DNA from: Kofleriaceae bacterium
Lineage (GTDB): Bacteria; Myxococcota_A; Polyangia; Haliangiales; Haliangiaceae
Direction of reading: 5' to 3'
DNA length: 64,000 nucleotides
Assembly (NCBI GenBank): GCA_046597055.1
Contig: JBKJLC010000058.1
Coordinates: forward strand, 1 to 64,000
Shown: one piece after another, positions 1 to 34,244 of the stretch
How the letters are laid out: every line of letters starts with the position of its first letter
Position numbering within the stretch: the stretch's first letter is position 1
Position numbers and translations under genes: made by a program
Notes under the pieces: generated by a model
Seen by the model: only the letters and a program-made list of their open reading frames with translations
Told to the model about the DNA's origin: nothing
Database searches by the model: none

Positions 1-1282
<1,282 letters not shown>

Positions 1283-1342
1283 TTGCAAAACAGAGCTCCT
1301 GAACTTGGATTTGCGAGGCCCTGCCGGCCGCGCAGGCGGCAA

Positions 1343-1371
1343 GAGGTACGGGAATAGCTGGCGGTTGTCAA
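1343..1371 (-). promoter_or_regulatory. Putative sigma70 promoter for rpsA
   Basis: Minus strand TTGACA (1371-1366), 17-nt spacer, imperfect -10 TACCTC. A second possible -10, TATATT, lies at 1440-1435. Confidence 0.5.
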
Positions 1372-1502
1372 CCCGGAAGGCCTGCACTGCAGCGGAAGCA
1401 CAAGCCTACCCCTCCCGGGTCCCCGCACCACCGCAATATAGGCGGCAGGCCCCGCTGCCGCCGAGCTGGCGCGCGCGCGCTCGGGGCCCGGGACGACCTG
1501 GG

Positions 1503-2159
1503 TCAGCGCAGGCGGCGCTGGACCTCTCCCTCTATAGTGTCCACCACCTGATCGAGCGTGAGGGCGGATGAATCGACCAGGACTGCGTCGTCGGCCGCGC
1601 GCATCGGGGCCACGTCGCGGCCGGCGTCCCGGGCATCGCGCTCGCGGATCTCGCGCAGGGTCTCCTCGAAGTCGCCGCCGTCCGCAAGCTCGTCCAGCCG
1701 GCGCCGGGCCCGCTTCTCATCCGAGGCGGTCAGGAAGAACTTGGCACCGGCGGTCGGGAACACCACCGTGCCGGTGTCCCGGCCCTCGACCACCACCCCA
1801 CCCCGTCCGCCCATCCGCCGCTGGAGATCGAGCAGGGCGGCCCGGACCGCGGGCAAGGCCGAGACCCGCGACGCGGCCTGTGAGGCCGCCGGGGTCCGGA
1901 TCGCCGCGGTGACGTCCTCGCCGGCCACGAGGACATGGTTGACGTCCCCTTCGAGCGCGAAGTCGATCGCGAGGTGGTCGGCGATCGCGGCCAGCGCCGC
2001 CTCGTCCTCCAGGCCGATCCCGCGGCGGAGCGCGGTCACGGCGACCGCGCGGTAGATCGCCCCGGTATCGAGGAGACGGTATCCGAGGCGGCGGGCCAGC
2101 TGCCTCGCCACCGTCGACTTGCCGGCCCCGGCAGGACCGTCGATCGTGACCACCAACAT
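1503..2159 (-). CDS. cmk: Cytidylate kinase
   Basis: TIDGPAGAGKSTVA P-loop, LDTGAIYRA, VVEGRDTGTVVFP, ERDARD; adjacent to rpsA. Confidence 0.97.
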   Translation of the reverse strand: MLVVTIDGPAGAGKSTVARQLARRLGYRLLDTGAIYRAVAVTALRRGIGLEDEAALAAIADHLAIDFALEGDVNHVLVAGEDVTAAIRTPAASQAASRVSALPAVRAALLDLQRRMGGRGGVVVEGRDTGTVVFPTAGAKFFLTASDEKRARRRLDELADGGDFEETLREIRERDARDAGRDVAPMRAADDAVLVDSSALTLDQVVDTIEGEVQRRLR

Positions 2160-2307
2160 CCGCGGACACTAGCCCGGATCATTCGCGCCGTCGACGCCCG
2201 CGCGGCCCCGGGCCACCACCCGGCCCGGTGCAGCCGCCCCCCGGCACCACGTCGCCCGCCTCGCGATGCGACGCCCGACCCGGCACGGGTCGCCCCGCTT
2301 TGCTACG

Positions 2308-3120
2308 ATGATGGCCGTGATCGACGGGGCGACCACCCAGCTGGACCTGCCGGCGCCCGGACGCTGGCGGGTCTTCGCCGACGCGGTCGCGCTCACGCTC
2401 GGCGTCAACGTGTGGCTGTCGCTGGTGCTGGTCCCGGCGATCCACGTGCGCGCGCTGGGCTCGGCCGGGCGGGTCGCGCTGGTCCTGCTCCCGCTGGCCG
2501 CGCTCGCCACCGGCGTGTGGCGGCGCAGCGAGCTGTGGCTGCTCGGCGCGTTCCCGTCGGCGCTGCTGGTCCCGATCTCGATCACGCCGGCGATCGCCTC
2601 GCCGCACCTGTACGGGCCGATCCGGTTCGCGGTGGTCGCGCTTGGCATCGTCGGGTATTTGCTGTCGGGCTCGTTCTTCGCGGCCTTCCACGAGCCGGCG
2701 CGGCCGACCAGCACCCGGTCACTGGCATCGTCGACCGCGGCACGTCCGCCGCGCTGGCGCCGGCGCGAGCGCATGTACTGGGAGCTGACCACGCTTGCCG
2801 TGGTGTGTCCGGCCCTCGGCCTCTACTGGGTCAACTTCGACGAGGGCATCACCCAGTTCCTCACGCAGATGTACCCGGGCCGGGTCGCCGGCATGCTGAC
2901 CCTGCTCAACGTCGCGGTGCTGGCGCTGTGGCTGGTGCTGTACCTCCACGTGTTCCTGGGCGCGCTCCGCCCCCACCGCACCGGGGATCGCGACGTGGTC
3001 ACCGATCTCGCGGTCGCGCGCGCCGAGGCCCAGAAGGGTCGCCCGCGGCTGCGCTTTCACCTCGCGGTGGTCAGCGCGCTCACGTTCATGGCCCTGCTCG
3101 TGTACCTCCGCCACCTCTAG
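2308..3120 (+). CDS. Hypothetical multi-pass membrane protein
   Basis: About 7 hydrophobic segments and GC3-biased codons; first gene of a tightly packed operon. Exact start uncertain (2308, 2311 or 2317). Confidence 0.75.
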   Translation: MMAVIDGATTQLDLPAPGRWRVFADAVALTLGVNVWLSLVLVPAIHVRALGSAGRVALVLLPLAALATGVWRRSELWLLGAFPSALLVPISITPAIASPHLYGPIRFAVVALGIVGYLLSGSFFAAFHEPARPTSTRSLASSTAARPPRWRRRERMYWELTTLAVVCPALGLYWVNFDEGITQFLTQMYPGRVAGMLTLLNVAVLALWLVLYLHVFLGALRPHRTGDRDVVTDLAVARAEAQKGRPRLRFHLAVVSALTFMALLVYLRHL

Positions 3121-3134
3121 TGCTCCAGGATCCC

Positions 3135-3323
3135 ATGCGCCGCTACTTCTTCGAGATCCTCGCCTTGGCGCTCATCGGCGGCAGCATGTTCTTCTTCAAG
3201 GAGGCGGTCGACTACCTGGCGCGCCGCGACTACATCGCCGCGCTGATCGTGATGGTGGTCGGCATGTCGGTGATCACGGTGGGCAAGGAGATGGCGCGCC
3301 TGGCCCTGGTCCAGCGCGATTGA
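3135..3323 (+). CDS. Small two-helix membrane protein (62 aa)
   Basis: MRRYFFEILALALIGGSMFFFKEAVDYLARRDYIAALIVMVVGMSVITVGKEMARLALVQRD; AGGA upstream; typical codon usage. Confidence 0.8.
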   Translation: MRRYFFEILALALIGGSMFFFKEAVDYLARRDYIAALIVMVVGMSVITVGKEMARLALVQRD

Positions 3324-3325
3324 CC

Positions 3326-4296
3326 ATGCGCGCCGCCGGCCTCGCCCGTGTGCTCGGCGTCCTCGGCGCGATCGCCGGCTGTGGCGACCACGCGCCCCCC
3401 CCGCCTCCGGCCGCGCCACCGCCGGTGGTCGCGTCGCTCGAGGCGCCGTCGGCCGGCCCCGCCGACGTGGTGGTCGCGCGGGTCGACGGCCGGCCGGTCT
3501 GGGGCTCCTGCGTCGCGGCCCAGGCCGCCGGTCAGCCCGACCGCCGCCGGGCCGCGCTCGACGAGTGCGTCGCGCTCGAGCTCGGCGCCCAGGAGGCCGA
3601 GCGGCGCGGGCTCGACCGCGATCCCGACGTGATCGAGCAGACCACCCGCGCGCTGGTCGCCCGCCTGGTCGACGTCGAGCTCACCGCCCGGGTGAAGACG
3701 ATCGCCGACCTGCCGCGCGACCTGGTCGACCCGGTGTTCGCCAAGCAGGCCGGGCGCATGCACCGCCCCGAGCTTCGGTCGAGCTTCTTCGTCCGCATCG
3801 AGCTGCCGGCCGGGAGCGAGGGCACGCCCGAGGACCGGGCCGCCGAGGCGGCGATCCGGGCCGCCCACGCCAGCCTGGCCGGTCGCAAGGACCTGTTCCC
3901 GGTCGACCTCGAGCGGGCGGTGAGCACGGCGGCCGGCGCGATGAAGACCCAGCGCGCCGCCCCCGACCAGCGCACGCGCGATCGGCTCCAGCCGTACTAC
4001 GGGGACGCGCTGTACGCGGTGCCGGCGGTCGGGATGGTGACGCCGCCGGTCCGCGGCCGCTACGGCTGGGACATCATCCTGTACACCGACGGCCTGCCGG
4101 CGCTCGAGACCTCGCGCGAGGACCTGATGACGCAGCTGTTCGCGCCGCTGCGGCCGGTGTACTTCGAGCGCTGGTCGAACCAGCTCGGCAAGGCGCACCA
4201 GGTCGAGGTGCTCGTCGATGCCACGACCCTGCGCGCCGCGCTCGGGGGCGACGACGATCCCGCGCCGGCCCCGGCGTCACCGGTGACGCCGCCGCG

Positions 4297-4300
<4 letters not shown>
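3326..4300 (+). CDS. Lipoprotein, SurA/PpiC (parvulin)-like foldase
   Basis: Lipobox AIAGC; VVARVDGRPV...ELGAQEAERRGLDRDPDV resembles the SurA/PrsA N-domain; GMVTPPVRGRYGWDII resembles the parvulin C-terminal motif. Confidence 0.65.
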
Positions 4301-5978
<1,678 letters not shown>

Positions 5979-5995
5979 GAACGACTGGACCCGAC

Positions 5996-8646
<2,651 letters not shown>

Positions 8647-8670
8647 TCGGCCGCGACCGGTCCGCCCCCC

Positions 8671-10041
8671 TCACCAGGTGCGCTCGGTGCGCCGGATCGC
8701 CAGCCGGTAGCTCACCGGCGGGCCGTCGGCGGGGGCGCTGAGCTCGAGCTCAACGTCGCGGTTCCAGCTCGCGTCCGAGACCATGACCGGCGACCGCAGC
8801 CGGTTGCCGCCGCTGGTGATGCGGCGGCCGCCGAGGCCAGGCTCCGCCACCGTCATCGCGGTGGCGGCGTCGAGGCCGAGCATGAACACGGGCTCGCTGC
8901 GCGGGCCGGTGCTGCCGGGGCGTGGCCCCGGGATCACGAGCACGTGACGCTCGCCCGGCGTCAGCGTGCCGGTCAGCACGCAGGCCTCCGCGCACGCCGA
9001 CACCGCCTGCGCGCTCTCGACCGTCGTGTGACCGGCGCGCTTCGCGATCGGCACCGCCGGGACGTGCACGAGCAGCAGGTCGACGCCGCCGCTGCCGGCG
9101 GACACGTCGCCAGCGTAGGTGACCAGCGTCGGCGCCTCGCCCTCGAGGATCGGGACCTCGAGCGCGGCCACGAGCGAGCCCAGACCGCCAGCGCCGGCCT
9201 GGTAGGCGATCAGATCGGCGGCCCGCCCGGCGGCGGCGAACAGCCAGAACACCGGGCGACTGGGCTCGTCGACGCCGACCGCGGACACCACCGCGATCGA
9301 GGTCGTGCCCGCGCCCGCGCGCAGCGTGTAGGTCCGGGTCTCGAACGGCGCGAGCGGACCGGTGGGGCCGCCGATCACGGCCGGGGGCCGCGCCCCGATC
9401 ACCGTCAGCGCGGTCGGCTCGGTCGCGAACGCGACCGGCGCCCCGCCGGGGCCCTGCCAGGTGATCGCGCGCGGTCCGGCGGCGGCCCCCGGCGCGATCA
9501 GCACGGTGGTGCGCGTATCGTTGGGGACCAGCGACTCGGGCAGCGCGATCAGATCGGCGCCGATCTGGAACGGGCTGCCGACGATCGACTGGTCGGGCAC
9601 CAGCGACCTGAGATCGACCTGCAGCGTGGTCCCTGCCGCGCGCGGCCCGCGGGTGGTCGCCGCCAGCGACGGGCGGATGTCGAGCGCGCCGGCGAGGACC
9701 TGGCGCTGGCCGCCGATCGTGACCGCGAGGTCGCGGGGCCCGAGCGCCGCGGTCGCCGCGATCGCGAGCGTGGCCTGGGCCTGGCCCGGGCCATCGACCA
9801 CGAGCTCGCGCACGGTCACGCCCGGGCCGGCGTCAAGCGTCATCGACCCGGTCACCCCGCCGGTCAGCGTCACCCCCACCGTGCGGGCCAGGAAGCCGAC
9901 CACCGACGTCACCTGGACCGAGCCCGGCACCACCGGACCGTCGGGACCATCGGGTGGCACGTCGACCGGCACCGCGCCGGACGGCTCGTACGCACAAGCG
10001 GCCACGACGACCCACGACAGGCACCCGGCGAGGAATCTCAT
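8671..10041 (-). CDS. Hypothetical lipoprotein with Ig-like (IPT/TIG-type) beta-sandwich domains
   Basis: MRFLAGCLSWVVVAAC lipobox; beta-rich LAIAATAALGPRDLAVT pattern typical of Ig-like repeats. Confidence 0.6.
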   Translation of the reverse strand: MRFLAGCLSWVVVAACAYEPSGAVPVDVPPDGPDGPVVPGSVQVTSVVGFLARTVGVTLTGGVTGSMTLDAGPGVTVRELVVDGPGQAQATLAIAATAALGPRDLAVTIGGQRQVLAGALDIRPSLAATTRGPRAAGTTLQVDLRSLVPDQSIVGSPFQIGADLIALPESLVPNDTRTTVLIAPGAAAGPRAITWQGPGGAPVAFATEPTALTVIGARPPAVIGGPTGPLAPFETRTYTLRAGAGTTSIAVVSAVGVDEPSRPVFWLFAAAGRAADLIAYQAGAGGLGSLVAALEVPILEGEAPTLVTYAGDVSAGSGGVDLLLVHVPAVPIAKRAGHTTVESAQAVSACAEACVLTGTLTPGERHVLVIPGPRPGSTGPRSEPVFMLGLDAATAMTVAEPGLGGRRITSGGNRLRSPVMVSDASWNRDVELELSAPADGPPVSYRLAIRRTERTW

Positions 10042-10259
10042 GGCCCCATCTGGGCACGACCGTGCCCGGCCGGTGCCGGCTCGGTCTGGCAACCCCTGGT
10101 AGCTTGCGCCCGGCGCCCGGTTGCATCACGGTCGCGCGGACCGTATACGAGGGCCGTGCGCCGACGACCATGGCCGGGCCCCCGCGTCGCCCGGCTTCCG
10201 CCTGCCGAGATCCGCCTGATCGCGCGCTCGTGCCACCGATCGTCCGGGACCGCGCGCGC

Positions 10260-11462
10260 GTGACCGCCGGTGCGCCGGGCCTCGGCCGCGGTGGCGCCGC
10301 GCTGGTCGCGATGTTCACCCTGGCCGGCTTTGTCGAGGGCGTGCTGTGGGGGCAGCTCAACGGGTTCGTCCCGCTGTACTTGCCGGAGCTCGGGATCCGC
10401 CCCGACGACGTGCCGGCCTGGACCAGCATCGCCACCCTGCTCGGCACCGGGGTTGGCCTGCTGACCCTGCCGCTGTGGGGCGCCCTCGCCGACCGCTACG
10501 CGCGCAAGCCGGTGATCGTCCGCTCGTTCGTCGTGTACGCGCTCGGCTGCGCGGTCGCGGCGCTTGCTCACGACATGCCCGGCTTCCTGGTCGGTCGCAC
10601 GCTGATGAGCCTGTCGATGGGCAACAGCGGCCTGATGATGGCCACCCTCAACGAGCGCATCCCGCCCCGCCACATCGGCCTGGCGTTCGCGCTGTTCAAC
10701 AGCGCCGGGCCGCTGGGCTCGTTCCTCGGCCCGCTGGTCGGCGGCCCGATCGTGGATGCCCACGGCGTGCGCACCCTGTTCGCGTGCGACGCCGCGCTCA
10801 TGTTCGCGCTGACGTTGCTGCTCGCCGGCGGCTACCGCGACTCGTACCAGCCGACCGACCGCCGCAGCGTGTTCGTGCTCGCCCGCGAGTCGCTCCGCGT
10901 GGTGGTGGCGTCGGCGCGCCTGCGCCGGCTGTTCCCGACCTTGTTCTGCCTGTTCGGCGGCTGGATGCTGGTCAACCTCTACCTCGCGCTGATCGTGACC
11001 GAGCGGTTCCCGACCGCCCAGCTCGCCACCCGCATCGGCTGGGTGCTCGCCAGCGGTGGCGTGGGCACGGTGGTGCTGTCGCCGCTCTTGGGCGCGCTCG
11101 GCGACCGGCTCGGCGTGTGGCGCGTGCTCGCGATCGGCGGCGCCGCCCAGACCCTGTGCTGGCCACTGCCGATGCTGGCGCCCGACTTCGTGTCGTTCAC
11201 GATCGCCTGGGCGGTCGCCAACGGGCTGGCGTCGGGGGTGTTCGCGCTCGCGTTCGCCGCGCTCGCCGAGTCGGCCCCGCCCACCGCGCGCGGCCGCGTG
11301 ATGGCGTTCGCGTACCTGCCGATGACCGGCGCCTACGCGATCGCATCGGCGATCGGCTGGCTGGCGCCCGGTCAGATCGTCGCGGTCGCCTTCCCGGCGG
11401 CCGCCGCGCTGACCGCGCTCGGCGTCGCCGGCCTGGCCTGGTCGCGACGCGCGCCGGTCTAG
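10260..11462 (+). CDS. MFS transporter
   Basis: Motif A twice (WGALADRYARKPV, LGALGDRLGVWRV); about 12 TM segments; GTG start chosen. Confidence 0.92.
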   Translation: MTAGAPGLGRGGAALVAMFTLAGFVEGVLWGQLNGFVPLYLPELGIRPDDVPAWTSIATLLGTGVGLLTLPLWGALADRYARKPVIVRSFVVYALGCAVAALAHDMPGFLVGRTLMSLSMGNSGLMMATLNERIPPRHIGLAFALFNSAGPLGSFLGPLVGGPIVDAHGVRTLFACDAALMFALTLLLAGGYRDSYQPTDRRSVFVLARESLRVVVASARLRRLFPTLFCLFGGWMLVNLYLALIVTERFPTAQLATRIGWVLASGGVGTVVLSPLLGALGDRLGVWRVLAIGGAAQTLCWPLPMLAPDFVSFTIAWAVANGLASGVFALAFAALAESAPPTARGRVMAFAYLPMTGAYAIASAIGWLAPGQIVAVAFPAAAALTALGVAGLAWSRRAPV

Positions 11463-30267: not shown

Positions 30268-30414
30268 ATGGCCCGTCGTGACAGTCGCCGTTCGTTGAAG
30301 ATGCGCCGCCGCAAGAGCCAGAACAAGCTCAAGGCCCGCATCAAGCGCAAGATCCAGGTCGCGAAGGCGGCGTCCGCGAAGAAGCCCGCGCCCGCGCCCA
30401 CCAAGAAGAAGTAG
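30268..30414 (+). CDS. Small, highly basic Lys/Arg-rich protein (48 aa)
   Basis: MARRDSRRSLKMRRRKSQNKLKARIKRKIQVAKAASAKKPAPAPTKKK; strong AAGGAG 7 nt upstream; all Lys codons are AAG. Confidence 0.8.
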   Translation: MARRDSRRSLKMRRRKSQNKLKARIKRKIQVAKAASAKKPAPAPTKKK

Positions 30415-30417
30415 TCG

Positions 30418-30906
<489 letters not shown>

Positions 30907-30931
30907 CGCCCCACAAGCCCCCGGTGAACCC

Positions 30932-31717
30932 GTGACGATCACAATGGACCTGTCGGCCTGGGGGCACCTCGAGGTCACCGGCTCCGATCGCGTACGCTTC
31001 CTGCAGGGCCTGACCACGATCAACGTCGGCGCGCTGCCGCCCGGCGGCCACGGCTGGGGCGCGATCCTCTCGCCCAAGGGCCGCGTGCTCTCGGTGGTCG
31101 AGGCGACGGTGGAGCCCGAGCGCGTGCTCCTCCACTGCGAGCCGGGGCTGGTCGACAAGACCCTCGCGCTGCTGGAGCGCTACGCCGTGATGGACGACGT
31201 GGTCTCGCGCGCGCTCGAGCTCACCGCCTACAAGCAGTGGACCTCGCCCACCGACGCATGGACCGCGCCGGTCGTGCTCGCGCCGCTGCCGGGCCCGGCC
31301 TCGTCGGCCGCCGCGCTCGAGATCGCGCGGGTCGAGGCCGGCATCCCGCGCTACGGCCAGGACGTCGACGAGGAGGTCTTCCCGTTCGAGACCCCGCTCG
31401 GCCGCTTCCTCGACTACGAGAAGGGCTGCTACATCGGCCAGGAGCCCGTCTTCCGCGTCCACGCCCAGGGCAAGGCCGCCCGCACCCTGCGCGGCCTCCT
31501 GATCTCCGGTGACACCCCCCTCGCGCGCGGCGACACCCTCTCGCACCCGACGCGCCCCATCGCCGGCACCGTCACCTCCGCCGTCGTCTCCCCCCGGCTC
31601 GGCCCGATTGCCCTCGCCTTCCTGCACCGCACCGTCTGGGACGCTGGCGGCGAGCTCACCGTCACCGCCGACGGCCGCACCGCCCACGTCGTCGACCTGC
31701 CGTTCTCGGCCGGCTGA
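30932..31717 (+). CDS. YgfZ/GcvT-like folate-binding protein
   Basis: [34 protein letters not shown] signature. Confidence 0.92.
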
Positions 31718-31797
31718 GCGGGCCCGCGCCCGCCCCGGGCTGCCGGGAATTTTTGCTCCGGCCGCGGTGCACAGCTGCCGCTCCGGCCGGCTCTCAA

Positions 31798-32226
31798 CTC
31801 CGGCTCCGGCTCCGGCTCCAGCTCCGGCTCCGGCCCTCGGCTCCGGCTCCAGCCTTCGGCTCCGGATCCAGCCTTCGGCTCCAGGCGTCGGCTCCGGCGT
31901 TCGTTCGCTCGCTCGCTCGCGCCCCACGCGCCCCAACGCGCACGCGCCGTGACAGGGCCAACCACACTCCCCATCGCCCCGTTGCCCTGGCGCGGTGCGA
32001 TGCGCGGAGGGCGCGGGGCGCGAGCGAACGAACGGCGCCCCAACGAACACCGCCTCGACGCGCGCGCACCGATGCTCGCCGCAACTCTTCCGTCGTGACA
32101 CTGTCCGCACCCCGGACAAGCGCAGCACCGAAGCTGGAGCCGGAGCCGCCGGCTGGAGCCGGAGCCGCCGGCCGGAGCCGGAGCCGGAGCCGCCGGCCGG
32201 AGCCGGAGCCGGCCGCCGCCGGAGCT
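31798..32226. repeat. Composite inverted repeat: (GGCTCC)n left arm, internal long hairpin, (GGAGCC)n right arm
   Basis: Left arm 31798-31897 and right arm 32133-32226 are reverse-complementary degenerate hexamer arrays. The inner stem 31898-32034 pairs CGTTCGTTCGCTCGC..GCCCC with GGGGCGCGAGCGAACGAACG. Confidence 0.85.
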
Positions 32227-32258
32227 CGCCAGAACCCTCGTGCTACCGTCTGCTCTTC

Positions 32259-33566
32259 GTGCCTCACCGCACATCTCTCCTCGCCGCAGCCGTCGCCGTC
32301 GCCGTCACCGTCAGCGCGTGCAGCGACACCCCGCCGATCGAAGGAGATCCTTTCCCGATCCTCCTCGACCGTGCCGACGGCGCCTTCCTCATCGACCTCC
32401 GCGAAGGCGACTCCGTCCGCCGCGCCGTCATCGACGTGCTCTCTCCCCTGACCGTCTTCGACCCCGGCCCCAACGTCCCCGCCCGCCGCCGCGCCGCCAC
32501 CTTCAGCCTCCTCGGCCACCGGTCCGACACCGATCCATCCCTCGTCGCCCGCGCCCGGCTGAGCACCACCGTCCTCGGCCTTCATCCCTGCGCGTCGCCC
32601 GATCCCGCCGAGCCCACGCCCTGCACGGTCGGCGATCCCGACGCGCCCACCACGATCGACGCCATCCTCGGCGCCGACGCCCTGCGCGGCGCGGCCATCC
32701 GCTTCGACCCGTCCGCCGACCGCATCGCCATCCTCCCTGACATCGCCGGCAGCGGCGAGGCCCGCGATCGCGCCTGCGACGCCGAAGTCCCTCGCCCCTT
32801 CTACGGCGGCGGCAACATGCTCATCGGCGGCACCGTGCTCCGCTTCGACGGGCTGCGCATCGCGCTCGGCGTGTGCCTCTCGCACGATCCCGACGCGACC
32901 ACCGCCGAACAGCGCGGCACCGACACCGCCCTCGTGCTGTCGACCGGCATCGGCATCTCGATCCTCGGCGAGACGCGCTACGAGGCGTGGCGCCGCATCA
33001 GCGGCGGTCCGGCCCTCGCCGACCTACCGCGGGCCGCGGCGCTGCTGCCGTCGGGACGGGTCGACGGCCGGCTGGCCCGCATCGACCGGCTCGCCATCGT
33101 CGGCACCTCGACCGCCCCGCGCGGCGCCTGTCGCGAGGTGTTCGCGCACCACTTCCTCACCCAGCGCGACTGCGTCGCCGAGGACACCGACTGCCCGTGC
33201 ACCGACGAGGACGACGGCTGCGCCGCCGCCGCGATCCTCGAGCTCGCACCACCGGCGCCGATCGAGGCGGTGGTCGTCAGCGACGAGCATCCGTTGCTGC
33301 AGGCGCTCCGCGCCGAGCTGCGGCCCGACCAGCCCGAGATCGACGGCATCCTCGGCGTCGACGCGCTCGCCACCGCGCAGTTCGACGTCGACTATCCCAA
33401 CAACCGGCTGCTGCTGCGCTGCGTGGGCGCCGGCTGCGTCGCACGGCCTTCGTTCCGCGAGAGCGCCGACCGGACCAACATCGAGCGCTGCCTGGCGGCG
33501 GCCCCGCCGCCGACGACCGATGCCGGGGTCGCCGACGGCGGCCCCGACGCCGCCCCGGTCCCGTGA
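32259..33566 (+). CDS. Lipoprotein with two degenerate retropepsin-like (aspartyl protease fold) domains
   Basis: Lipobox VSAC; AVIDVLSPLT...DAILGADAL...IRFD and LVLSTGIGISIL...DGILGVDAL...VDYPNNRL. Confidence 0.65.
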   Translation: MPHRTSLLAAAVAVAVTVSACSDTPPIEGDPFPILLDRADGAFLIDLREGDSVRRAVIDVLSPLTVFDPGPNVPARRRAATFSLLGHRSDTDPSLVARARLSTTVLGLHPCASPDPAEPTPCTVGDPDAPTTIDAILGADALRGAAIRFDPSADRIAILPDIAGSGEARDRACDAEVPRPFYGGGNMLIGGTVLRFDGLRIALGVCLSHDPDATTAEQRGTDTALVLSTGIGISILGETRYEAWRRISGGPALADLPRAAALLPSGRVDGRLARIDRLAIVGTSTAPRGACREVFAHHFLTQRDCVAEDTDCPCTDEDDGCAAAAILELAPPAPIEAVVVSDEHPLLQALRAELRPDQPEIDGILGVDALATAQFDVDYPNNRLLLRCVGAGCVARPSFRESADRTNIERCLAAAPPPTTDAGVADGGPDAAPVP

Positions 33567-33581
33567 TACGCTGACCGCCGC

Positions 33582-34244
33582 TTGGACTGGGACCCACTGT
33601 TCCTCTCGCTCGAGGCGGCCTCGATCGCGACGGTGGTGGCCGGCCTCGTCGGTATCGGCCTGGGCGCGCTGCTGGCGTGGCCGCGGACGCCGGGCCGCGA
33701 TCTGCTGGACGCGCTGCTGGCCGCGCCGCTGGTGATGCCGCCGACCGTGCTGGGCTACTACGTCCTGGTCTCGGTCGGTCGCAAGAGCTTCGTCGGCGGG
33801 TTGTGGCGCGACCTGTTCGGTGACGATCTGACCTTCACGTTCACCGGCGTGGTGCTCGCCGCCAGCCTGGGCGCGTTCCCCATGATCGTGAAGGCGGCCC
33901 GCACCGCGTTCCAGGGCATCGATCCGACGCTGGTCGCCGCTGCCCGCACGCTCGGCGCCGGCCCGGTCCGCGCGTTCTTCACCGTGTCGTTGCCGCTGGC
34001 GGCGCCCGGGCTGATCTCCGGCCTGATGCTCGGGTTCGCCCGCGGGCTCGGCGACTTCGGCGTCACCCTCATGATCGCCGGCGACATCCCGGGCGAGACC
34101 CAGACCGCGCCGCTGGCCATCTACGATCACGTCCAGGCCGGCCGCGAGCGCGACGCCGCGATCATGTCGATCGTGCTCACCGTCGGCGCGGTGCTCGTCC
34201 TCTACGTGGTCAACGTGATCGCGCGCCGGCGGGAAGAGGCGTGA
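33582..34244 (+). CDS. modB: Molybdate ABC transporter permease
   Basis: PLVMPPTVLGYYVL, AARTLGA, FARGLGDFGVTLMIAGDIPGETQT. Confidence 0.93.
   Translation: MDWDPLFLSLEAASIATVVAGLVGIGLGALLAWPRTPGRDLLDALLAAPLVMPPTVLGYYVLVSVGRKSFVGGLWRDLFGDDLTFTFTGVVLAASLGAFPMIVKAARTAFQGIDPTLVAAARTLGAGPVRAFFTVSLPLAAPGLISGLMLGFARGLGDFGVTLMIAGDIPGETQTAPLAIYDHVQAGRERDAAIMSIVLTVGAVLVLYVVNVIARRREEA

Follow-up and report, generated by a model that had tools for sequence, protein, structure and literature searches.

Why do two adjacent, unrelated genes of a soil bacterium of the Kofleriaceae lose G-ending codons on the same DNA strand, with the loss centred on an intergenic repeat element? The locus, which lies within a 64,000-nucleotide stretch (positions 1 to 64,000 of contig JBKJLC010000058.1, assembly GCA_046597055.1; hereafter "the window"), comprises the 3′ part of a ygfZ/GcvT-like gene, a single-copy hairpin element with two hexamer-repeat arms, and the 5′ part of a predicted lipoprotein gene. 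By analysing the locus, its own genome (G000) and related genomes, we confirmed that the strand-specific loss of G around the element is real and found that this trough is not unique, being one of many kilobase-scale, strand-specific G/C skews ("halos") in the genome. Overall, the genome-wide footprint is real, the mechanism that we put forward for it is a proposal, and the interpretation given in a preliminary description of the window is partly supported. The features of the locus are as follows.

30944..31717, + strand: ygfZ/GcvT-like host gene (Pfam GCV_T and GCV_T_C; match in 40 of 41 genomes searched, own genome included)
31333..31717, + strand: short side of the halo, where silent positions are rich in C on + and in G on − (15/86 G versus 39/86 before)
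31755..32225, no strand: intergenic single-copy element, one long imperfect hairpin (folding and genome blastn)
31787..31898, + strand: left arm, interrupted (GGCTCC)n with 9 exact units (repeat reading)
31906..32034, no strand: inner inverted repeat, 29-nt arms, 83% complementary (weak short matches only, in 11 of 40 other genomes)
32128..32219, − strand: right arm, interrupted (GGCTCC)n on the − strand with 9 exact units, probably anchoring the halo's long side
32259..32837, + strand: long side of the halo, within the 5′ portion of the lipoprotein gene and gone by ~33250 (18/117 G versus 62/155 beyond; codon profile)
32259..33566, + strand: predicted lipoprotein host gene (no Pfam family; lipobox-like VSAC read from the sequence)

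On the + strand, the number of G-ending codons per 60 falls from 29 (31079–31258) to 11 (31538–31717) within the ygfZ-like gene, stands at 5 (32400–32579) and then 25 (33240–33419) within the lipoprotein gene, and reaches 34 in modB (33600–33779); these five counts, first made by hand in the preliminary description, proved exact on recount. Third positions lose G, mainly to C, while positions 1 and 2 are normal. Four-fold sites give a G/(G+C) of 13/77 over the final 110 codons of the ygfZ-like gene and of 10/71 over the initial 110 of the lipoprotein gene. The best change points fall at 31333 (39/86 G before and 15/86 after, p = 1e-4) and at 32837 (18/117 before and 62/155 beyond, p = 8e-6), both p values being uncorrected for the choice of point. 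For genome-wide scoring, four-fold sites were compared with the expectation from codon family and next base, with repeats masked, across 6,704 genes called in the 8.4-Mb genome by a gene model blind to third-position G versus C (a myxobacterial genome, judging by its 26 MYXO-CTERM matches, against 0 in 14 control genomes). On this scale the trough reaches z = −8.4, and no other site in the window goes beyond |z| 4.4. Contigs assembled from run X2, a different sample of the same study, cover 30681–31790 and 32183–33494 with 0 differences, the element interior being bridged by no listed piece; since the flanks are identical in this assembly, the trough is not an assembly artefact. The C-rich state is also kept in strains 95–99% alike from two further studies.

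Orthologues of the two host genes provide a natural comparison, as the lipoprotein gene adjoins ygfZ at 13 of 15 same-genus loci and, in most relatives of the genus, just a short spacer separates them. In the last 110 ygfZ codons, four-fold G amounts to 32–60% in 15 same-genus orthologues versus 17% here (a sixteenth, with a different array, has 72%). At codon-matched sites inside 31304–32798, a consensus G has become C in our genome 20 times and the reverse once, whereas outside this interval (the two genes plus a thioesterase gene) the counts are 20 and 14. By these alignments the trough is lineage-specific and absent from orthologues without this element; the preliminary description had named the same gradient in such orthologues as something that would refute its reading. 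Its argument that transfer of one gene or whole-gene expression bias explains the pattern poorly also holds, in that the halo cuts two genes with ordinary orthologues. An excess of variants near the element, which it had suggested looking for, did not clearly emerge among close strains, where numbers are small (34 differing positions, too few to polarise). At three relatives' loci (L002, L004, L007) the spacer 3′ of ygfZ holds other, unrelated palindromic or repeated inserts with no strong trough, and this spacer looks like an insertion hot spot. In G004 (L010), a (GGGGACGCAGAC)n array follows the ygfZ stop codon and ygfZ itself is G-rich (51/71 in its 3′ part, 64/95 before), a skew of opposite sign to that in the window.

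The preliminary description had further proposed testing whether troughs coincide with copies of the element. They cannot, because the element is single-copy: genome blastn and a 41-genome search returned arm or short matches only, and the idea of a multicopy unit was rejected. The anchor is instead a family of hexamer arrays. The region 31718–32250 folds at −223.6 kcal/mol (z −14.3; equally stable shuffles 0/100), with no Rfam match beyond one at E 0.64, and a scan of metagenome contigs with the lipoprotein gave 110 pattern matches, 0 of them confirmed. Contigs matching the GGAGCC arm (32128–32219) reach summed depths of ~1,000–11,000 in four soil or sediment runs, so that the GGAGCC repeat is very common in those communities. 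A small Lys/Arg-rich open reading frame beginning MARRDSRRSLKMRRRKSQNKLK (by eye) lies at 30269–30415 of the window, and similar frames follow ygfZ in more distant relatives.

Across the genome, 176 peaks of skew reach |z| ≥ 5 and 83 reach |z| ≥ 6, the trough ranking 28 among the former. The peaks are tent-shaped and ~1 kb wide; many are centred within genes, and relative to gene sense their sign can be either. Of seven strong peaks that span genes on both strands, six keep one DNA-strand sign. The halo thus follows the DNA strand and not gene sense. Amino-acid usage is shifted within halos, which are several times stronger than the contig background skew (mean absolute 0.02). There is no clear link to the replichore (57 vs 53 overall); where the local background is strong, the motif strand tends to be leading-like (37 vs 21, p = 0.048). 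At three convergent gene pairs without an array (C139 near 5400, C262 near 30950, C66 near 12280), each of the two genes is C-rich towards its 3′ end when read in its own sense, possibly a termination-linked effect.

A concordant hexamer array lies within 600 bp of 34 of the 83 peaks at |z| ≥ 6 (random expectation 2.4%), and 3 of the 83 have solely a discordant array; under a stricter array motif the numbers are 27 concordant and 0 discordant (random 0.3%). An unbiased scan of 79 hexamer classes returned five at z ≥ 5, all of them related (AGCGGC, AGAGGG, AGCGGG, AAGGAG, ATCGGC). On the motif strand, which we term strand Y, there is an excess of G that begins at 0.23 and decays over 491 ± 29 bp 5′ of the array, and begins at 0.17 and decays over 195 ± 28 bp 3′ of it. 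The preliminary description had proposed testing whether the sign flips with the orientation of the element; it is the repeats that orient the effect, 76 of 97 arrays being positive on the 5′ side. The 5′ flank effect is +0.13 at 62 loci with sense genes and +0.11 at 36 loci with antisense genes (p = 0.60). In-gene sense-strand arrays show the largest effect (0.18, vs 0.10 for antisense and 0.08 for intergenic arrays), and 23 of the 28 deepest peaks are sense-G. Neighbouring arrays have the same orientation in 9 cases and the opposite in 13, in a fragmented assembly.

Period-6 repeats have a flank above 0.2 at 48 of 269 loci, compared with 7 of 231 for periods 4, 5 and 7–12 away from hexamers; CGG/GGC repeats, GGTGGC repeats and 9-mers show little or no halo, long stems without hexamers (7 loci) have little effect, and among non-coding 10-mers outside arrays none marks strong halos. 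Around the members of a REP-like family (CCCTTCGACACGGCG, ~60 non-coding copies scored) the oriented halo is weak, at ~0.06; the genome also holds 11 RAYT-like loci, none of them on the window's contig.

The substitution spectrum constrains the process further. At four-fold sites within peaks, C on strand Y stands at 0.46–0.48 of expectation and G is raised 1.47–1.67-fold, a shift inflated by peak selection (unselected 5′ flanks give odds of 1.7–2.0). On the same strand T rises ×1.95–2.47 at C/T sites and A falls to ×0.70–0.82 at A/G sites. Silent C on strand Y thus gives way to G and, less markedly, to T, most of all right beside the repeat. The log-odds shift is 1.0–1.6 across all 5′ and 3′ neighbour classes, without any neighbour preference; the single preferred neighbour base that would mark a footprint of enzymatic cytosine deaminase (APOBEC/DddA type) is missing. 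In a four-state model, transitions alone move G/C by ×1.04–1.14, and a direct C-to-G multiplier of 2.0–3.5 is required. Beside purine-only arrays T is found 36 times against 22 expected, which argues against avoidance of pairing with the repeat. Genes for ImuB and DnaE2 are present in G000, together with one reverse transcriptase gene. G002, with imuB present and no dnaE2 match (possibly an assembly gap), has 0 peaks at |z| ≥ 6 in the 0.4 Mb covered, a small sample, against 5–35 per Mb elsewhere. Loss of mismatch repair was rejected as a cause, MutS and MutL having been found in 5 of 5 genomes.

A directional clue comes from inteins. G009, G004 and G003 carry an intein in dnaE2 at GFPE|S (GFGEYGFPE|SHA; L286–L290), with a central insert that by eye resembles a homing endonuclease. 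In the intein-less dnaE2 of G012, G008 and G001 (L274, L275, L284), G/C counts change from 11/45, 8/46 and 10/44 to 30/5, 27/9 and 33/6 across the insertion point; this sign switch (p 1e-8 to 2e-10) falls exactly at the point of insertion, with no array in the linker. Altogether, among 12 intein-less alleles 3 switch sharply, 2 weakly, that of G000 on one side only and 6 not at all, and intein-bearing alleles have the same polarity in weaker form. Where DNA has been cut, repair synthesis produces the strand that leads away from the break. The switch at the insertion site therefore points to repair synthesis and, as the strand leaving the break is G-rich, the re-made strand is taken to be the G-rich one. 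By extension from this one site, strand Y of an array may be re-made from a variable upstream point up to and slightly through the repeat. At a low threshold, G000 has 14 C|G and 22 G|C sign switches; neither type is in excess, and no switch coincides with a recognised intein site. One G000 gene (C139 near 68868) carries an intein end (ISHN|C), has relatives with inteins at the same site and shows no skew switch.

In the sister genome G004 the 5′-long, 3′-short shape recurs at 19 of 20 fetched array loci (5′ side +0.27, +0.13, +0.09, +0.03; 3′ side +0.08, +0.06, −0.02, −0.03). In the linker of an oxoprolinase gene, 12 orthologues split evenly: the 6 array-bearing ones score +14 to +43 immediately 5′ of the array, the 6 array-less ones −6 to +8, and the hexamers vary between lineages; in this comparison one of the six was picked as a peak, two fragmentary loci were omitted, arrays were called by eye and kin are non-independent. 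Further afield, (GGAGAR)n arrays in named genomes from many phyla gave no consistent halo at the 74 of 120 loci analysed (40 loci with short flanks and 6 contigs from a single repeat-rich bin were set aside, and the method is weak below 58% GC); of 13 Myxococcota/Deltaproteobacteria loci in that survey, 3 were above +0.1 and several were negative. Genes for a four-helix-bundle protein (TIGR02436) in five relatives (G002, G004, G005, G006, G016; L223–L250) have arrays within 900 bp at 26 of 28 loci, many of them (GGCTCC)n, and in G000 6 of 15 matches have an array within 1.5 kb; host flanks of the four-helix loci average within ±0.05. These genes have a hairpin leader, lie between hexamer arrays and often form divergent or convergent pairs.

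We tentatively favour, at slightly less than an even chance, the explanation that a halo is the accumulated scar of repair synthesis in which an error-prone polymerase has re-made one strand at the repeat over and over. Synthesis of strand Y (here the − strand) would stall, slip or be nicked at the repeat or hairpin; strand Y would then be trimmed back to varying extents and extended again across the repeat, repeatedly in the course of evolution; judging by the intein-site polarity, the re-made strand would be the G-rich one. The repair polymerase, for which ImuA-ImuB-DnaE2 is a candidate, would miss C opposite template G two to three times more than normal. Selection would retain changes at silent sites only and, with A/T outcomes mostly lost in a 72% GC genome, C-to-G would dominate. 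At the present locus, the right arm is likely to be the anchor of the long side, as suggested by the genome-wide 5′-long, 3′-short shape: as the old anchor it would have its long side in the lipoprotein gene and its short side in ygfZ. The shape here fits the right arm alone, and the left arm may be a later fold-back copy. The earlier notion of a strand-asymmetric mutational footprint thus stands in so far as the effect belongs to the DNA strand (6/7), is lineage-specific and is oriented by the repeat; among the causes that the preliminary description listed, error-prone patch repair fits best, whereas plain deamination of exposed DNA falls short of the G/C shift in the model.

Several observations weigh against this explanation. 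Within G000, 46 of the 83 strong peaks have no array at all by the first motif (49 have no concordant one), and this motif was composed after peaks had been seen. The preliminary description had held that equally deep troughs away from such elements would count against its reading; they are indeed common, which tells partly against it, while the ftsY-like gene that it had cited as C-rich scores only −3.7. Halo size does not follow array length or purity (rho 0.14 and 0.07, n = 97). At the locus itself, the two arms face opposite ways yet both flanks share one sign, the left arm has the wrong polarity for the 5′-side rule if GGCTCC marks the G-rich strand, and close strains differ by 3–5.5% inside the halo and ~4% outside it (G>C 6, C>G 4). 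Elsewhere, 33 (GGCTCC)n arrays in 0.8 Mb of G005, of the same hexamer as the element, have a skew of only 0.03–0.04; 20 GGAGCC-type loci of G037 are mixed in sign; the 3′ end of Lhr is mixed too, G014 and G015 having arrays there with no skew and G004 a skew where no array is visible; and, in the portions sampled of G004, G005 and G021, the majority of strong peaks lie away from arrays. Of the 12 intein-less dnaE2 alleles only 3 show a strong switch, and these may go back to a single origin; five other intein sites in G000 show no switch, and the polarity at the intein site would equally suit a displaced or nascent single strand that suffered damage. The substitution model, finally, depends on 24 paralogue pairs, on stationarity and on an assumed GC fixation bias.

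Damage to a stalled template requires no special polymerase: with replication stalled at a template repeat or hairpin, strand Y would stay single-stranded on the 5′ side of the obstacle, and its cytosines there would deaminate or turn abasic and be lost. This account predicts the 5′-long shape and sub-kilobase scale, suits a hairpin as stable as the present element, and agrees with the rise of T and fall of A on strand Y without neighbour preference and with the more often leading-like motif strand under strong background (37 vs 21, p = 0.048). It meets difficulty in that transitions alone yield at most ×1.14 in G/C, so that C-to-G bypass is still needed, that CGG/GGC, GGTGGC, 9-mers and hexamer-free long stems are near silent, that no clear overall replichore link emerged (57 vs 53), and that the strand expected to be exposed at the intein site, given the 5′ resection usual at breaks, is the C-rich one; we regard it as unlikely, if well worth keeping in mind. 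Alternatively, the arrays may themselves be a second product of a hidden nicking or mobilisation process, linked to TIGR02436 cassettes or REP/RAYT, that re-makes one strand, expands hexamers and skews the flank. The array-flanked four-helix loci (26/28 in five relatives, 6/15 in G000), the similar behaviour of many different hexamers, the long G005 arrays without halos and the weak oriented halo of the REP-like family (0.06) all favour such a process, and there is a precedent in yeast, where a (GAA)n run is reported to expand in response to nicks on its 5′ side (PMC11626148). No four-helix or RAYT match lies on the window's contig, however, four-helix host flanks stay within ±0.05, no non-coding 10-mer outside arrays marks strong halos and no nuclease came to light, which makes this account rather improbable.

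Transcription offers a different route to a 5′ tract, in which RNA polymerase pauses at the repeat and an R-loop behind it exposes the G-rich non-template strand. The strength of in-gene sense arrays (0.18) and the sense-G sign of 23 of the 28 deepest peaks speak for it; antisense-gene flanks are nevertheless almost equally skewed (p = 0.60), and the G-rich strand is thus not consistently the transcribed sense strand that an R-loop footprint calls for. Both genes here are transcribed from the C-rich strand, so that an unseen antisense RNA would be required, and the intein-site switch is left unexplained; an R-loop origin is accordingly quite improbable. A last group of accounts invokes selection on sequence (pairing avoidance, or codon bias tied to expression), the import of a foreign segment, or faulty assembly. 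Some broad peaks in the genome could be foreign genes or expression bias. At this locus these accounts are already largely refuted, given the rise of T beside purine-only arrays, a sign that follows the DNA strand, two host genes with ordinary orthologues and identical flanks in an independent assembly, and we give them very little weight.

Bacterial silent-site composition is usually interpreted as translation selection or replication skew; here, alongside a short repeat, roughly half of the silent G/C sites of adjacent single-copy genes have been rewritten on one strand, and local skews of this sort can be misread as horizontal gene transfer or an effect of expression. Should repair synthesis turn out to be the cause, skew at the codon level would amount to a directional fossil map of break and stall sites, and the origin of the skews in the repeats known as GRINS would become directly testable. 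A bolder and doubtful extension is that ImuABC/DnaE2 repair synthesis leaves the new strand C-poor wherever it acts, a single process underlying array and hairpin halos, homing-endonuclease switches and GRINS skews, so that high-GC genomes would carry a repair map; were this true, the hexamer arrays of four-helix cassettes would be directional mutators of neighbouring genes.

Compared with known systems, halos resemble replication GC skew in that two-fold sites on the G-rich strand gain T and lose A, and differ from it in being local (<1 kb), stronger, repeat-oriented and without a clear replichore link. In yeast, strand-coordinated mutation clusters arise around double-strand breaks and in break-induced replication; they share with our data a sign switch at the break, as at the dnaE2 intein site, whereas the halos are a fixed evolutionary footprint in bacteria, lack a context motif and keep the same sign on both sides of arrays. 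The genes of the ImuA-ImuB-DnaE2 mutasome are present here, and according to a review G:C-to-C:G transversions after ultraviolet irradiation of Caulobacter depend on imuB/imuC (PMC3901139), with only a minor effect of ImuABC/DnaE2 on spontaneous mutation (PMC7198004); a locus- or strand-specific footprint is not described in the parts of this literature available to us (PMC3901139, PMC7198004, PMC5285347). GRINS are described as duplicated tracts with correlated GC and TA skew, of cause not established, for which error-prone replication has been proposed (PMC8256042). Halos are like them in forming sub-kilobase to kilobase tracts in genes, with skew strongest at third positions and amino-acid usage shifted, and unlike them in being single-copy DNA graded around a short repeat, with a weak TA skew of opposite sign. 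Both flanks match only themselves in the genome, with no second copy of >500 bp at >80% identity; mean absolute GC skew exceeds 0.15 (0.30 and 0.29) with its maximum at third positions, and TA skew (0.151 and 0.103; T>A on the C-rich strand) lacks the GRINS pattern of a mean absolute value above 0.15 correlated with GC skew. On copy number and TA skew, the locus thus falls outside the published definition of GRINS. Among 18 duplicated tracts in G000, 2 are strongly skewed, both at array-bearing peaks. In G005, strong G skew marks each of two near-identical neighbouring Ser/Thr kinase-like tracts (C1 near 431600 and 434500, L368), a situation reminiscent of GRINS but not in polyketide genes.

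With TIGR02436 cassettes the element shares hexamer arms beside long hairpins, including (GGCTCC)n (cassettes of G002, G005, G006, G016), and differs in that its core matches no cassette leader; it holds no four-helix gene, nor does its contig among 8 profile and 15 tblastn matches. Assignment to REP/RAYT or MITE families is not supported, the element lacking dispersed copies and only its arms or short pieces matching elsewhere. Elevated mutation near repeats in general is already known. No description of a repeat- or intein-anchored strand skew in bacteria surfaced in titles and abstract openings, subscription literature lying largely outside the search. What the present analysis adds is the link to hexamer arrays, the 5′/3′ shape, the natural experiments among orthologues, the need for C-to-G change and the intein-site polarity within the same genus.

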